From Chrysomallon squamiferum (taxonomy: Eukaryota > Animalia > Mollusca), in NCBI GenBank assembly GCA_012295275.1, contig CM022672.1, positions 35,402,001 to 35,466,000 of the forward strand: a stretch of DNA of 64,000 bases, read 5' to 3'. The notes beneath the pieces are model-generated. The model was not told where the DNA came from, ran no database searches, and worked only from the letters and a program-made list of their open reading frames with translations. The stretch's first letter is position 1. Each line of letters starts with the position of its first letter. Both the position numbers and the translations under genes were made by a program. This document shows positions 1 through 58,600 of this stretch, one piece after another.

Positions 1-2200
1 AGGCAGTTACAAATGATTGATACTTCACTATTGACTTCAGTGCCTTGAAGCCAAACACAGACAGTGACATCTTAATAAAACATCATCAATCACAACATAC
101 TTACTCCACACAACATACTTACACAATACAACATTTCTACTTCTGTCAACATACAGTAGATTCTAAAATCCCTGAAATATTGTAAGTTCTGTAAAACTAC
201 AGTATATTCTCAAGATTTTATTCTTCAATGACGTAATATAGTGTGAAAAAAAGTAAATGTTTTAAAAAGAATTACTCAGTGTTAGGTGAAACAGGATAAG
301 TCATTAAAAATAAGAATTCTGACAGCTTTATTAACACTAAATGGTACAGAAAATAAAGTCATTTAGAATTGAATGGTATATTTCTTTTCTTTAACTGTAT
401 TTAAAAAAATAAAAATTAATAATAAATAAAAAAATAAAAATAATTTTGTTCTTTTCACTTTTAATTGCAATAAAGCATGCCTTCATGTAGATACATACAC
501 AGAACACACACACACACACACACAAACAATTAATATATGTGTATGTAACTATTTTATGTCTTAACTATTAAAACTTAAAATCAAAACTGAATTCCTGTAA
601 AATGTTTAATTGTATCAAAAAATCACTTTAAGAATTTAACCCTGAAGTCTATGAAAACTATCCACCTGACACATTGGTTTATTTGCTGAAACTGCAGTGG
701 GCTAACTAGATAACTAACTAACTAACTAACTAAATGACTCTGTCTGAAGGACTCAGCTATGAGACTGGTGACAGATTTAATTCATCAAGTGGTTGAGGTG
801 AAAGACAAACAGTTCAAGAGGATTTCTCAGTAAACAAGATATCAAACCCAGACAGATGGCAGAGAAATCCTGTTACTAAAAAACAAGTGTGTACAGTATG
901 TGATCTACCACTGATGTATAATGAGCTGTTTAACATTCTCTACAGCTTATTGTTTGTACACTGCCTTCGTGTTGATTGTTCATCCCTCTATTGTCACTGC
1001 TGATAGAAAGCTGGTGATTAGGGTCATCAACAGTTGATCGTGTATATTGATCTGAATAGCCCTTCATCAACGCTCAGTTTCATTCTCATTAAAGCAAGGA
1101 GGACAGTGTCAATACTGCTTTCCCTCGCATGAAAGAGAAACTAACCAGGCAAGACTTTTGTCAACAAACTCAGACATGAAAATCTTTCGGCAATTTCATT
1201 TTTTTATAAGGGCTGGAGGGGAGAGAGTTTTGTCAAAGAAAGCAGTGAAGCCGGAGCTAGGAGAGTGTTTTAAAATTGTGTTTTTAATGAAGCGAAGTCC
1301 TCAGATCTCTCTCACACTTACTGCAGGAAGCAGAACAATGGGAGGTGACTGAAGCAGGATTCTGGTTAATGATACATGAACGTATCTTTCAGTGTGAAAC
1401 CCTCCACGTTTGTAGATGACTGAGTTCTCTGAGGACAGCTCATTATCTCAAGTCCACTCAGAAAGAAAACTTACACAGAAGAAAGTGGTGAACTCAGCTT
1501 TAAAACACTCGTGTTTGTGATATACTCTCATAATTAGTGACACCTGTCTCTGTACAGCTTTCTCCTTCTTCCTGGTCTCAAGTCAGACTAACTTCATTAT
1601 TTTAAAATCTGAATTTAAATTTATTAGACTAAATTCATTATTTCACAGTCTGAACTTAACATTAGAATGACTAACTTCTTCATCTTTGTTTTTACAGTGT
1701 AAATTAAGAGAATAACTAAATTCATTATTTTACAGTCTGAAGTTTCATTATAAGTCTGATTAACTTCATTATTTTATAATCTGAAGTTAACATTATTAGA
1801 CTGACTTCATTATTTTAGTCTGAAGTTATTATTATTATTATTAGTTTTAACATTGGCTCTTTAAGTACTTTTCATCAGATTTTGTCACATGCACATTTTA
1901 CATATTATAAAATTTTAGAGGAGTAAAGGGTGGAACAGAATATGCAGAAAAGGAACAAAATTCATTTTAGCATCTGCAGCTTTTATACTGCTTTATATTT
2001 TTACTAAGTTTATTTTAAAATTTTTAAAACATGGCCTTTTGAAACTAGCTATATGTATATAAAACTTTTAAAACTGAGTTTTCACTTGACAAGTCTGTTT
2101 GGAAAGACACTCACTTACACAAGATGAATGGTTGAGTAATAAAACATCAGACACAGTCTGACAAGACAAATGATAACACAGTCTCCAGCTGACACACAAT

Positions 2201-2296
2201 ATGTCACACAAAGTGTCATACATGTTCCCAGCTTCCCAGAGTTCCCCTCAAGCACAAACATCTCAGTGCAGAGTTTGTCTCAATCTGGACAGACTG
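2201..2296 (+). CDS. dae4-like putative first coding exon (MSHKVSYMF...CRVCLNLDRL)
   Basis: ATG at 2201 with an in-frame TAA upstream at 2174; donor CTG|GTATAA at 2297 is phase 0, matching the next exon. It could instead start at an acceptor at 2188. Confidence 0.5.
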
Positions 2297-3277
2297 GTAT
2301 AAAGTGGTCAGCTAACATTACAAGTGTCACAGTGTAGTTTTATATCATGTGAACTACACAGACTGGTATAAAGTGGTCAGCTAACATTACAAGTGTCACA
2401 GTGTAGTTTTATATCATGTGAACTACACAGACTGGTTTGAAGTGGTCAGCTAACATTACAAGTATCACAGTGTAGTTTTACAACATCATGTGACTTTTCA
2501 TGTGTATGTATGTTATATATATATTTATCAATGTATAAAGGTGTCAGACATAAGTGCATATATGATTTAATGTTTAAAAAAATAGCTACTATGAACGTCA
2601 GTTTTAATTTACTGTTTTGTTTTCCTCAGATTCCTCTTCCCTCATTCAGCCAACTGAAGGCTCACTACCCCGGCTACTGGAACTTCGGCGGCCGTCTGCA
2701 CAACCACCACCTCATCCACGTCCTGGGTGTGGACAGCAGCCTGCTGCTTCACGACACCAGCGCACTGCGCCTCTCCTACGCACTCAACAAGATCGGCGGC
2801 AACCACTCCCTGGGGACTCAGCTCATTCGACTGTCCAAGTTCGGACGAGACAGTGTCCCGGGGAGGGATGGACACCAGTACATCTACCACCCCATCGCGT
2901 ATGGCCCCTACCTAGCTGACAAGTACGGCTACCCCTCCATCTCAAAGCTGCACCAGACAGACGCAGACAACACCAAGAAGAACTTCTGGGGGAAGCAGGG
3001 AATCCTCAGAGTCATCACCTACACCAAGAAGCTGAACCGACCCAAAGGTCACGTGGCATTGTGGGATTGCAACCACTTCCACCAATCAAAAGACTGGATT
3101 GTTGATCATGGACTGATCACTGTGGAATTCTGGGAATCGCCAGGTAAGAATTCTCTTTATATAAAACATGTTTACTCTATTTAGTGTAACTCTAAAACAA
3201 TCAAATCTGTACTGTACACATGTATATCATGTGCACACGCACAGCCATAGACATGCATAAATACGTACATGTGAGTG

Positions 3278-3335
<58 letters not shown>

Positions 3336-3353
3336 CACACACACACACACACA

Positions 3354-3385
<32 letters not shown>

Positions 3386-3389
3386 ACAG

Positions 3390-3421
<32 letters not shown>

Positions 3422-3426
3422 ACACA

Positions 3427-3464
<38 letters not shown>

Positions 3465-3827
3465 TTAACACATACACAGACACACACACACGCTAACACA
3501 CACAGACACACACACACGCTAACACAGACACACACACACATGCAGACACACACACACACTAACACACACACTCACACACACATGTTGAAATGATGATGAC
3601 TAACACACATGAATAAAACATCTGGTCACTGTAAGACTATTTTCAATGTTGCAGACTCGGACTGTGAGAACAAGGACATGAAGCTGCTGAACACAGAGTA
3701 CAACTCCTACGTGTCAATGCTGCGGCCGACTGCTGAGTCGCGTCTGAAGAGTCTGTTCAGACACAAGTCCTGGAAGTCACATTTTGTCCAGTTCAACTAC
3801 AAGAAGTACAGAAAACAACACAACTAG
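2201..3827 (+). CDS. Tae4-family (T6SS peptidoglycan amidase effector)-like protein, dae4-like; 3 coding exons 2201-2296, 2630-3143, 3655-3827; about 260 aa
   Basis: GT-AG junctions join in phase (0 then 1) into one ORF. Motifs LPSFSQL, DTSALRLSYALN, GRDGHQYIY, FWGKQGIL, GHVALWD and VEFWE follow the recalled Tae4 pattern (RPSF..NxCAIRMSYxLN..GxDGxxYIY..GKKGII..GHVTLWNG..FW). The 5' start is uncertain. Confidence 0.8.
2290..2490. repeat. Tandem repeat, about 70-bp unit x3, each starting with the dae4-like exon 1 donor
   Basis: cagactggtataaagtggtcagctaacattacaagtgtcacagtgtagtttt repeated. Confidence 0.85.
2630..3143 (+). CDS. dae4-like exon carrying the whole Tae4-like domain
   Basis: Acceptor ttttcctcag|, donor CAG|GTAAGA; 514 nt open, GC-rich, Tae4 motifs. 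Confidence 0.9.
3279..3581. repeat. Imperfect (CA)n microsatellite in dae4-like intron 2
   Basis: Direct reading. Confidence 0.95.
3655..3827 (+). CDS. dae4-like last coding exon, cationic C-terminal tail
   Basis: Acceptor atgttgcag|, phase 1 continues the frame (DSDCENKDMK...KKYRKQHN*). Confidence 0.8.
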
Positions 3828-5400
3828 CTCTACACCTTCTCCAGCATCATTCCTTAACAAGCATCTGACACAAACTACATTTAAAAAAACATCATCACTG
3901 TTTGTAAAACTGGACTTCATAGACTCTCCTTCAGAAGCCTGGGACACAGATAACTACTGCACACACAACAAAAAAAAACAAAAAAACCTGTTCTCTGCCA
4001 GTTCCAGTGATTCTCATCATTCCAGAAACAGACAAAGAACAATTAAAAAATGTGCTTCTAAAGGAGAAATGGATACTGACTGAACTGGCAGTAATCAAAG
4101 CTTTTGTCTATCCTAGCTAAACAGGATATACAAAGTTATTAGTAAATAAACAATATTCTGTACTGATAAATGGCAGAGATGTTCCTTGAAGAAAACAGAA
4201 AACAACAACTGTGGGTTATGTAAGAGTCGAAGCATAACCATGTGTGAATAATTCATAATAATCAACTAGTGGCAAAAACAAAACTGTCAGTGTAACAGTC
4301 ACTATTTAGTGTAACAGTCACTACTGTTACAAGGTAACAATAATTAACTTGTGTAACAGTCACAAAGTCATTGAGTTTGTGTTACTACTAAGTGTAACTG
4401 TTACAGTGGTTACAATCACTAAGTGTTACAGTGGTTACAATCACTAAGTGTAACAGTGACAAGCTGAATGAGTTTGTGTAACAGTCACTAATAAAAGACT
4501 TCCTGGAAAAAACGCTGATTCTGAGAAAATTCTGAAAGTGCTATAATCAGAGTGAACAGTGAAACCAAAGCAGGTGAAAGCAGACGTGCCTGATTAACTT
4601 TACAAATGTCTTCATTTTAATTCAGTGTCTTTATTTAAGCTTCTTGTGGCCATAATGTGTGTACAATCAGTATTAATTTATAACCTGTACAAAGTTGATT
4701 ATATTTATCTAATTTTTTTTAATGTGATTAATGTTAGTTTTTTCATGCTCAAGGAAATTTCTGTTGTGAATAATCAGATTTGTAGTGTTAAATGTTTTTT
4801 AATTATTCTATCAGTAAATCTGAAATCAAACTCATCTTTTTTTGTGATTTTGAAACTAAGTTAATCCTTTTTGTGATTTTTGAAACATAATTAATCTTTT
4901 TTTGTGATTTTTAACTAATTTTTTTTTTTTACTTTGAAACTAAATTTCTCCTTTTTGTAATTATCTTCATCACAATTCAAAATAAAGTTTCAGTTTTATT
5001 TTAAAACGTGAACTATTTTAACTAATACAGACAAGGGTGTATTTGTAACATAAAACTGATTTTTCTACAACTGCTTGTTCTCACATGATCTTGACACCTA
5101 TAAAATAAACATAAATCTCAAATTCTTACTTTCCTGAAAAAAGATTTATAAAAATACTGTGACTACTAACATAAATCTTCAACTTTAACAAATTTGCTGT
5201 TTCATTTTGAACTGCAGATTAAGAAATAAAATTCTGTAGCAATAATAAAGCATTAATATCTGTTTCTGGATATAAAAGTTTTATAATCACAAACATTCCT
5301 CTGTATTGTTTGCCATGTTAACACTATGAACTAGCTAAGCATGGTATCCATGGATACATTCCCACAAAGAAGTGAAAACAAGCAGTAGACAGTCTGCAGA

Positions 5401-8458: not shown

Positions 8459-40455
<31,997 letters not shown>

Positions 40456-40478
<23 letters not shown>

Positions 40479-40705
40479 CTCTCACTCCTAAAACAAAAAC
40501 ACTTCTTTATTATATATATTCTGTAGCCTCGCATTCCTTCATCTCTCACTCCTAAAACAAAAACACTTCTTTATTATATATAATATTCTGTAATATTCTT
40601 CATCTTCACCCTCAAAAACACTTCTTTATTATATATATTCTGTAGCTTCACCTTCCTTCATCTCTCAGTCCTACCTGAAACCAAACACACTAACACTTCT
40701 TTCTG
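40456..40705. repeat. Tandem copies (about 63 bp x3-4) of the ANAPC4 start-codon/acceptor region
   Basis: ttctgtagcctcgcattccttcatctctcactcctaaaacaaaaacacttctttattatatata repeated with decay. Confidence 0.85.
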
Positions 40706-55693: not shown

Positions 55694-58600
55694 AAACTGT
55701 TTTTTTCAGATAAGAGTTTGTTTGGAGACTGTCTAAATGAAGAAAATGTTGCCCAGATTTATCAGCTCATTGAGTTCCTAGGAAGACCAGAAAGTAAATA
55801 TTTATATTTTTAATTAACAAAATTACCTGTTTATTCAAATCATAATTAACAATTTTTCCATCAAAGAAATTTTAAATTGTAAAGAGGTACCTTTTACTGA
55901 TTGCATGATTCATAATAATAATAATTGTTGGTATCTAAAATGAATATATTGAAATAATTTTTGAAAATATATATATAATTAAAAAGTATTGTAAATATAA
56001 AGAAAATACATTTTCTGAGATTTTTTTTTCACTGTAAGGAATTATTTAATACTATATTATTAAATTCTTATTATTCAGTTATAGTGTTTAATTTCTGTTA
56101 TTAATGTCTGTTATATTAATTGTATATGTAATAAATTTAATTTAAATATTTTTTAAATTCTGGGGTTTTTTACTGTAGGAATTGTTTAATTACTATATTA
56201 TTATTACTGAACTACAGTGTTTAGTTTCTGTTATAAATGTCTGTTTTATATTAACTGAATTTATAATAAATTTAAATAAATATTTTTTTGTTTAAGATAT
56301 AAAAACTGAAGGTCTGTTTCGGAAGTCAGGCAACGTCTGTCGACAGAGACATCTGAAACAACTTCTCAACCAGAACGCGTCCAACCTCGGCCTGGAGGAC
56401 GGGACGTTTTCACCCCACGACTGTGCAGCCACCCTGAAACACTACCTGTCAGAACTACCCGAGCCGCTGCTCACTGAGAGACACACAGAGGCACACAGAC
56501 AAGTCATTGGTGAGAGACATTTGCATTAAAAATACGTGTCTTGATATCTTCATGTATAACAAAGAATCAGTAACAGATATGATTACAGGAAAACATTTCT
56601 TTACAGATATATATACATATATATATAAAATCATATCTTGTATCTGTGTGTTTGTGTGTGTGTGTGTGTTATCTTCAAAGAAAAGAATTCTATTTCTATT
56701 TGCTTTTTTTTATTATATAATTAGTTTTATCAGATATTCTCGGTAATTTTTGAAAGAAAATTTTAAGAATTGATTTTACTATTTATATCATTCATGGAGA
56801 CAAATTACTATATAGTTATTGTTATTTTTGTCTTCTTAAAATGTAATTTCCCATGTTAACTGTTAAAAAAGACAACAGCAACAACATGATTTATTTTCTT
56901 ATTATTTTAATTTACTGTAGGTAAATTCAATGTAACTGTTGTTTTCTAGAACTGCCTAACAATCTGATGAATTCTGCAAAGAGTCGAGTCAGAGAAAAGC
57001 AGCTGAAAGCGATGCAGCTGTTGATTCTGCTGTTGCCGAGGGAAAATGCCCTGCTACTCGAATGTCTGCTGGACCTGCTGTACCGAGTCTCCATGGTTAC
57101 AGAAAACATGATGACTGCAGAGGCTCTTGGCACTATTTTTGCTCCTTCTCTCCTTTGCTCAAAGAAGGTAAATAAAAACTTAACATTTCAAAACTTTAAA
57201 AACTCATTTTCTTTACTGATATAAGTTTTGTGACTCTTTTTTTTTGTTCTGTTCTTCTGTTCCTTTTGAATACATCTCCACTCTATATTTATAAATTCTT
57301 AACAATCCTAAATTGACATAAAGCATGCAAGAAATTTCTATAAATATAAACGTAATTTATTTTAGCAGATGCACCAAATTAAAAAAGTTACATAGTCTAG
57401 TTAATTTGCATAACTGAACATGTGATTTTTATTTTTATTTTTTTTGATAAATTAATGGTTATAAATTTGTTTTAAAAATTGAAATTTTTCTAATCTTGTT
57501 GATGTTTTTTCTTTGCTTTCAGTTGTCACCAACAGAATTTCACATAGAATCCTGCCATTCCACAAAAATTGTTTCCTTTTTAATAGAGAACACCCACCAC
57601 CTGTTCACGGTTTGTTTAAAAATAAACTTTTATATTAAATTTATCAAAATCATTTGCAGTAAAAAAAAAATTAATATTAAAGCCATGTTAATGTTAGTGA
57701 ATTTTTTAAGGTTTGTTAATCAGTTGTTTTTGGTTTTGTTTCACTGTCAAGTCAAATATTTTTATTTTTATTTTTTTTTTTTTTTTTTGGTTTTTTATTA
57801 ATAGAATTCTTGCAATGGAATATTTTTTGAAGAAAATTCAAATGTTTATAAAACTGTTTTGTTCAGATACCTCGAGAGCTGGCAGTTGATGTAGCAAACT
57901 TCTGGACGAAGATGGAAACTCCAGACTACAATCACGACAAATGTGACATGCAGAAAATCAGCAGTCACTTCAAGGCAAAGGTAACTTGTCTTTAAATTTC
58001 CTTTTATTCTTGTTTATTCTTTGAGTCAAAATGAAAACTAACATTTAGTTAAATGTCCTGAGAGAAAATAAATTTATTTCAAAATTGGCCAAAATTTTCT
58101 TAAAAGTGTATAATGAAAGATAGCTTTTATTGATTAATATTTCAATAAAAGAAAGATTTGAAGTTTTGTGACAATTACAAGAAAACAATAATTTATTTTG
58201 TTACAAATGAAATTTCCCTAAGACACTTATAGCTAGTCAGTCCTACAGACAAAAATAACATGAAATGTAATAAAACATGCAAAAACAAATATTTCAAATA
58301 CAAAACATAATATCATTACAAAAAGATTGAAAATGAATGTATATTTTTATTAATATTATATTACATTTCACTACACAGTTTAAAACTGGATATTTCAAAT
58401 ACAAAGAGTAATATTACATAAAGACTGAAATGGAATGAATATTTTTATTAATATTATATTACATTTCACTACATGGTTTAAAAATACAAAGTACTATAAA
58501 GAGAGAAGTAATGTTAATGTTTTACAGAAGTGTAGCAGTGATGCTGACGGCCCACCCATCTCCACTGTTGTCAACTACACCATCAACCGCCACACCCCTA

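Follow-up and report, generated by a model that had tools for sequence, protein, structure and literature searches.

Amidase effectors that animals have domesticated are a textbook example of bacterial weaponry turned to use in animal immunity, and those that have been characterised still cleave peptidoglycan. An active Tae4 or Dae4 amidase cuts the D-Glu-mDAP bond of peptidoglycan; in bacteria, a T6SS effector-immunity pair comprises a bacterial gene adjoining a tai4 immunity gene. The dae4 genes are said to have been listed first by Chou in 2015. The toxicity of Salmonella Tae4 is abolished by C44A, H126A, or D137A, each alone (PMC3695027); the third Asp of Tae4 lies either 11 residues past the catalytic His (Salmonella D137, Enterobacter D139) or two past it (Serratia, Agrobacterium) (PMC6277958); and the catalytic water network of Ssp1 includes Asn48 (PMC3852654). 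Among the animal Dae4 proteins compared here, antibacterial activity is shown for nvDae4 of Nematostella only, which is secreted and cleaves peptidoglycan in a Cys-dependent manner (10.1101/2021.05.13.443009). The same study notes, citing Chou 2015, a second Nematostella tae4 homologue that has no catalytic Cys and is induced by 2'3'-cGAMP through NF-kB alongside the active one (10.1101/2021.05.13.443009; for immune induction also PMC8713801).

Here we describe a gene of Chrysomallon squamiferum that belongs to an old, conserved branch of Dae4 with a broken catalytic dyad. Animal Dae4 itself is already known and a Cys-less paralogue was noted in the Nematostella study cited above, so the initial annotation, which offered the locus as its best candidate for an undescribed system, claimed too much. 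Full-text literature searches turned up neither a Ser-type Tae4 family of molluscs or other lophotrochozoans nor a Tae4-Hint fusion, though the lists of Chou 2015 may already include these mollusc proteins. In PMC13514124, Tae4 appears among the abbreviations only.

The window, by which we mean the whole 64,000-nt stretch of DNA analysed, is AT-rich eukaryotic DNA. The open reading frame at 2510-3184 had been taken as an intact coding unit; both of its ends run into introns, and we rejected it as the gene. The real exon covers 2630-3143, with a phase-0 acceptor before it and a phase-1 donor after it: RNA contigs of two samples from one study (runs X6 and X7) start at 2630 with a loose 5' end, jump 511 nt after 3143, and resume at 3655. 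The same exon borders were found in seven genomic loci from metagenomes (L002-L008; L001 is spliced). The features of the gene are as follows:

1..2629 (+ strand): likely intron, given the loose 5' RNA end; the upstream exon lies outside the window
2630..3143 (+ strand): coding exon with the whole Tae4-like (NlpC/P60, papain-like) domain, from RNA contigs X6/X7 and Pfam Tae4
2753..2755 (+ strand): Asp41 (P0001 numbering), replacing the Asn two residues before the nucleophile of active Tae4
2759..2761 (+ strand): Ser43 (AGC; P0001 numbering), aligned with the catalytic Cys of Tae4 and placed at a helix start in the model
3050..3052 (+ strand): His140 (CAC), counterpart of the catalytic His in GHxxLW
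3068..3070 (+ strand): Cys146, clade-specific; Gly in 55 of 65 Cys-His rows
3083..3085 (+ strand): Gln151, at His+11, by an ungapped register the probable position of the essential Asp137 of Salmonella Tae4
3144..3654 (+ strand): 511-nt GT..AG intron containing a CA microsatellite, from the RNA contig joint with donor and acceptor read
3655..3827 (+ strand): last coding exon with a conserved Cys, basic tail, and stop, from RNA contigs and sequence
3828..4300 (+ strand): 3' untranslated region, extending at least to 4300, covered by RNA contigs X6 and X7

The conserved Cys of the last exon is at 3663-3665 and the TAG stop at 3825-3827. The tail is basic (pI 9.7), with nine K/R against one D/E in the last 30 residues, and a helix is predicted for it in the Gigantopelta orthologue. 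At the other end of the gene, the loose RNA end encodes a hydrophobic stretch, likely the hydrophobic end of a signal peptide; its sequence, that of the upstream exon, had no match in the window with up to three mismatches allowed. Most named orthologues also have hydrophobic N-termini by a crude hydropathy score, and we infer that the encoded protein is secreted. The locus is thus a eukaryotic tae homologue that bears introns and is expressed (RNA contigs), as expected of a Dae, and an intron-bearing animal gene excludes a bacterial T6SS effector-immunity pair.

The other recognised coding pieces in the window were exons of an ANAPC4-like WD40 gene and a RhoGAP gene (36599-36823 and 40296-40481 on the - strand; 56296-56526 on the + strand). 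Neighbours were ordinary housekeeping genes; no immune gene cluster was seen in the window, and tblastn with 117 family members found no second copy there. A 69-bp tandem repeat of about three copies occupies 2289-2470 in the intron preceding the domain exon, and a contig joint in run X2 jumps back 69 bases at this repeat, where one more copy is likely.

The product of this gene is a recognisable member of the Tae4 family, matching Pfam Tae4 (PF14113) with E = 4e-10 and 40.3 bits against a cut-off of 27. A single-sequence search against solved structures gave nothing useful, and the register alignment was therefore made with a family profile of 60 homologues. The profile puts HDTSALRLS on QNACPIRMS of the solved Salmonella and Enterobacter Tae4 chains, with Ser over the catalytic Cys, and pairs GHVALW with their GHVTLW. 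In the sequence read, AGC (2759-2761) and CAC (3050-3052) are both present, and the motifs HDTSALRLSYALN and GHVALWD share one reading frame. An AlphaFold model (pLDDT 93.9, pTM 0.90) used with Foldseek had Tae4/Ssp1 structures as its top 11 matches (E 3.8e-9 to 4.7e-5) and superposed on 4HFL with an rmsd of 2.2 over 148 residues (VIA Z 17.6); a Tae4-type NlpC/P60 papain-like fold is thus predicted. Profile, Pfam, and predicted model agree with the initial annotation that a Ser stands in the register of the catalytic Cys, and its reading of the retained His is borne out by the codon and by the paired GHxxLW motifs. An active Tae4/Dae4 amidase requires the Cys at the helix start, where the window gene has Ser, and the catalytic His of GHxxLW, which it keeps as His140. 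Judged by these defining residues, the gene is not a working Tae4.

A Ser at this site might in principle reflect a sequencing error, a private allele, or a decaying pseudogene of an ordinary Cys-His Dae4, and AGC is indeed one base from TGC, as had been pointed out. The codon distance is correct; it tells little of the mutational route, because codons at this site in nine DNA sequences include AGY (six), ACT, GCG, and TCC (one each). The Ser codon was invariant in all four runs that we compared, each spanning it and some with spliced mRNA (two RNA, one DNA as guessed, one of a kind not given; two studies; contigs only, which drop rare variants, and one run may be the source sample). Eight of the nine coding differences between the runs and the window were synonymous, compared with 22% synonymous sites (P = 4e-5), and dN/dS was ~0.22 for L002-L003, the one clearly unsaturated pair, dS being saturated for most pairwise comparisons. 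Runs of four other organisms contained a 60-base match around the His motif (3040-3099) with three differences each; they give no dN/dS because this segment alone is covered, without the Ser codon. The gene is under purifying selection. Together with the alignment of 117 proteins described below, in which none of the 110 filled rows has Cys, the run comparison refutes the error, allele, or pseudogene reading, to which we give next to no credence.

A first search returned 116 proteins from 126 candidates, making 117 rows with the query. The nucleophile column held Ser in 98 rows, Thr in 12, a gap in seven, and Cys in none; the His column held His in 108, a gap in seven, and Gln and Arg in one each. 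Every filled row thus has Ser or Thr (110/110), in line with the Ser conservation that the initial annotation had proposed to check in orthologues. Named members come from gastropods, bivalves, cephalopods, and a chiton, with 64%-89% identity, the nearest being a protein of Gigantopelta aegis (89%). Within the mollusc set proper (rows P0001-P0105), the nucleophile site carried a hydroxyl residue in all 103 filled rows, and the dyad pairs were S/H in 86, T/H in 12, and S/Q in one (n = 99). Since Ser or Thr replaces Cys in every close relative found, this is likely an old non-cutting protein. The suggested conversion of toxin to receptor cannot have been a recent one-step event, for the site is Ser or Thr in 110 of 110 rows, and deeper relatives have Ala, Ser, Asp, Gly, or Lys there. 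Within the first 117 rows, the Ser column ranked 61st of 170 in conservation, below all its motif neighbours, and Thr was gained at least twice within molluscs. Neighbouring duplicates were seen in Mercenaria (P0053/P0079), Mactra (P0031/P0082), and Dreissena (P0054/P0073); in the Mercenaria and Mactra pairs, one copy has Ser and the other Thr.

Beyond molluscs the dyad drifts. Searching 1.84 billion representatives with a profile yielded 123 matches, and relatives were found in an annelid, a brachiopod, and a nemertean (Owenia, Lingula, and Tubulanus, from this search) and in a bryozoan (Bugula, from the first search). We defined a deeper set of 25 rows outside the supported mollusc clade, after dropping the poorly aligned fragments P0153 and P0160; four rows miss one dyad site, leaving 21 with both. 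Their pairs were A/H in eight, S/R in six, S/H in four, and K/Y, G/H, and D/H in one each. The Ser-His pair is therefore absent from 17 of 21 deeper relatives, including the sole copies found for Owenia (A/H), Tubulanus (S/R), and Bugula (S/R); Lingula has S/H. The proposal that the catalytic His is kept accordingly holds for the window gene and for 108 of the 110 filled rows of the first search, and fails outside the mollusc clade, where the site is Arg in six and Tyr in one of 25 rows. On a clade tree of 37 rows with a median of 10 changes per column, the Ser site changed six times and the His site three times. The Ser site is steadier than average, yet 48 columns are steadier still, and 14 of 170 did not change at all, among them R46, S48, N52, L143, W144, C146, and W167. 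That the Ser is less constant than these residues speaks for a dead enzyme; that 86 of 99 mollusc rows retain both Ser and His speaks against it.

Phylogenies placed the family on one side of a well-supported branch. In a tree of 81 chosen rows (LG+G4, two catalytic columns removed, bootstrap not fully settled), 48 dyad-broken rows were fully split from 33 Cys-His rows (98/99), and a tree of 38 rows under a mixture model gave the same split (100/97). The lophotrochozoan clade had supports of 100/99 and 94/90, respectively. Both trees are unrooted, their rows were gathered by a search seeded with the mollusc profile, and the Cys-His rows are mostly unresolved. The dyad-broken side also includes one group with Cys and no His and one with Asp and no His, whose predicted proteins diverge just past the last Trp, where the same intron would be expected to end the similarity. 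The Asp group (P0143, P0145, P0146, P0151, P0152, P0205, and P0270-P0283) lies on apparently intron-bearing contigs; in its six tabulated rows, Asp occupies the nucleophile site and the His is missing. In the Cys group (P0139, P0140, P0144, P0150, and P0189), a new Cys immediately precedes the lost His in five of five rows and could hold the old nucleophile in a disulfide. Pattern scans of GTDB, which reach close relatives only, found no relatives among six candidates for the mollusc profile and none among 17 for the Asp group. A search seeded with P0107 returned two proteins only, and an Atlas search with P0002 returned bacterial Tae4 clusters only. Two metagenomic loci on records sharing a prefix (L007:1264-1773 and L008:1501-2016) encode Ala/His and Ser/His paralogues; the Ser codon of L008 is TCC, compared with AGY in mollusc-like loci.

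Other parts of the active site have changed as well. No Asp occurs at His+2 or His+11 in any of 126 clade rows (0/101 in the mollusc set, 0/25 in the deeper set). Even Cys-His rows do not all have such an Asp, which is present in 43 of 65. In the mollusc set, His+11 is Gln in 79, Glu in 15, and Lys in five (n = 101), and Lys stands at the third-residue position in nine rows. Asp154, at His+14, is 95% conserved and might be a substitute third residue. Position 41 is Asp in 103 of 103 mollusc-set rows and Asn in 63 of 65 Cys-His rows. At several points on the cleft side, molluscs have departed from what is usual in Cys-His Tae4 (N41->D, R86->H/L/N, V87->P, D136 variable, A137->P), which means that the original ligand may not be bound. 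Looking for another Cys at the active site, we found none in the nucleophile register, in keeping with the initial annotation. Cys146 is the sole Cys of the domain exon and showed no changes on the clade tree; we rejected it as a replacement nucleophile, since it follows the His by six residues within a single strand and is Gly in active forms. A nearly invariant Cys past the splice junction accompanies it, and the two are likely bonded in a disulfide.

On this evidence the protein has probably lost catalysis, and a pseudo-amidase, the reading that the initial annotation put first, is favoured because the dyad drifts outside molluscs and the third Asp is absent from 126 of 126 rows. Under its alternative of a rare Ser nucleophile, the mollusc protein would be a working serine hydrolase of papain fold whose site consists of Ser43, His140, and Gln/Glu151 (or Asp154). 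Such an enzyme would explain why molluscs keep Ser with His in most rows and a hydroxyl residue in all of them, and the 95% conserved Asp154 could serve it. Ser is encoded from both codon families (AGY in six of nine DNA sequences, TCC in L008), several Thr forms lie in tandem with a Ser duplicate (Mercenaria, Mactra), and the shared record prefix of L007 (Ala) and L008 (Ser) suggests that Ser and Ala paralogues can coexist. Deeper relatives are also incomplete as evidence, because paralogues could have been masked by clustering at 50% identity, and their presence could account for the drift. Against this stand the pair missing from 17 of 21 deeper relatives, the repeated origin of Thr in molluscs, the lack of Asp at either known third position, with Lys there in some rows, and a Ser less conserved than its neighbours. 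We consider a serine enzyme unlikely, and a pseudo-amidase considerably the more probable of the two.

A dead domain could act on bacteria or on the host. Littorina has a Ser-type protein (P0010) together with Cys-His Dae4s (P0224, P0269); P0224 and the Cys-His protein of Branchiostoma (P0204) are 25%-26% identical to the query. A search seeded with these Littorina and Branchiostoma proteins, of limited sensitivity, found no further named mollusc Cys-His protein, and the Cys-less Nematostella homologue was not retrieved by name in the homologue searches. Other Cys-His Tae4 homologues (P0284, P0178, P0215, P0162) begin with signal-like sequences and are extended N-terminally (by a Cys-rich stretch in P0284); one protein of this set has three Tae4 repeats.

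Hedgehog combines a signalling domain of bacterial cell-wall-peptidase fold with a Hint module. Sharing the dyad-broken side of the tree with the window family, P0140/P0228 (one cluster, two contigs) carry a Tae4-like domain, with Cys kept and His lost, in frame with a Hedgehog-type Hint module (E = 3e-44) that begins with a CF cleavage start. The window-family profile aligned to the Tae4-like part of P0140 (hhalign 98.8%, E = 7e-17), reaching the Cys past the shared intron. The Hint domain itself is absent from the full-length orthologue P0002, and the window gene ends 57 codons past the domain; the mollusc protein tail did not align to the Hint part of P0140, and an Atlas search with the fusion gave no usable match. 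A Hint fusion is the architecture of secreted autoprocessed ligands (PMC2362128), and published descriptions of Lophohog give it a Hog domain preceded by a unique N-terminal domain (PMC9695228, PMC5103448, PMC2362128); a scan of 9 of the 17 supplementary files of PMC2362128 found no Tae4-like motif. P0140/P0228 may be Lophohog or a new Hog family.

We tentatively prefer to see the window protein as a secreted, dead descendant of an animal-domesticated bacterial amidase that would bind peptidoglycan without cutting it. The fold and remodelled cleft would stay under strong constraint, with the dyad residues lost in several independent ways; the old cleft would hold a cell-wall peptide, likely peptidoglycan stem peptides, without turnover; the basic tail would anchor it to mucus, bacteria, or similar anionic surfaces; and its role would be that of a trap or of a recognition protein. 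The weakest step is the ligand. Provided that catalysis is lost, we lean slightly toward peptidoglycan because of ancestry, the precedent of RipD, and the fact that the Cys-less homologue of Nematostella is induced in an immune response. Counting against peptidoglycan are the Hint fusion in a related lineage, which points to other uses of the Tae4-like domain, and very slow evolution over all mollusc classes, which would be unusual for microbe-recognition proteins.

These points make a close second of a host ligand: a dead Tae4-fold domain acting as an extracellular ligand or matrix protein (signalling, mucus, shell, egg coat) whose partner is of animal origin and not peptidoglycan. We regard this as somewhat doubtful, and rank it second because of the slow evolution (64%-89% identity from gastropods to a chiton), the changed cleft, in which residues of the active type are swapped for new invariant ones, and the dyad-broken, Hint-fused relative to which the family profile aligns. 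The mollusc protein, however, has no Hint and no tail alignable to one, and the fusion is confined to a single cluster. A broader scenario, which we judge improbable, is that a cell-wall toxin domain entered animals early, lost its dyad once, and founded secreted non-enzymatic ligands in a pan-molluscan and a Hint-fused branch; if true, the recipe of Hedgehog would have been used again here on another fold, and the unique N-terminal domain of Lophohog might thereby be identified.

The dyad-broken branch is the widely kept, slowly evolving one, found in four classes of molluscs and in four other lophotrochozoan phyla. Should it bind peptidoglycan, it would be a new family of invertebrate recognition proteins with a bacterial origin; should it be a Ser enzyme, a rare nucleophile switch within the NlpC/P60 fold; and should it be a host ligand, the Hint-fused relative would tie the window family to Hedgehog-related gene evolution.

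Some parallels lie outside the family and serve as analogy only. Non-catalytic PGRPs, of an unrelated family, are hydrolases turned receptors, and Cys-to-Ser replacements in the papain fold have gone both ways: sponge silicatein, a cathepsin L relative, is active in a new way, and Plasmodium SERA5 is reported as non-enzymatic. A functional model is RipD (Rv1566c), a non-catalytic NlpC/P60 pseudo-enzyme with a C-terminal extension that binds peptidoglycan (PMC12067865); it differs from the window protein in being bacterial, in belonging to another NlpC/P60 branch, in having Ala-Ser-Glu for the triad, and in that its binding is shown there, whereas that of the window protein is putative. The Cys-less Nematostella homologue is, like the window family, a Cys-less animal Tae4, and is kept beside an active paralogue. 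The Cys-His Dae4s (Nematostella nvDae4, Littorina P0224, Branchiostoma P0204) are likewise animal Tae4 homologues with a likely signal peptide, and the window protein differs from them in having no Cys and in lying across the supported branch, at 25%-26% identity to the Littorina and Branchiostoma proteins. With bacterial Tae4/Ssp1 (PF14113; PDB 4HFL, 4HFF, 4J30, 4BI4, 6IJF), the window gene shares the predicted fold, the RxSxxxN helix motif, and the GHxxLW strand; it departs from them in its Ser for Cys, the absent third Asp, and an identity of about 22%, and adds introns, a likely signal peptide, a clade-specific Cys pair, and a basic tail.
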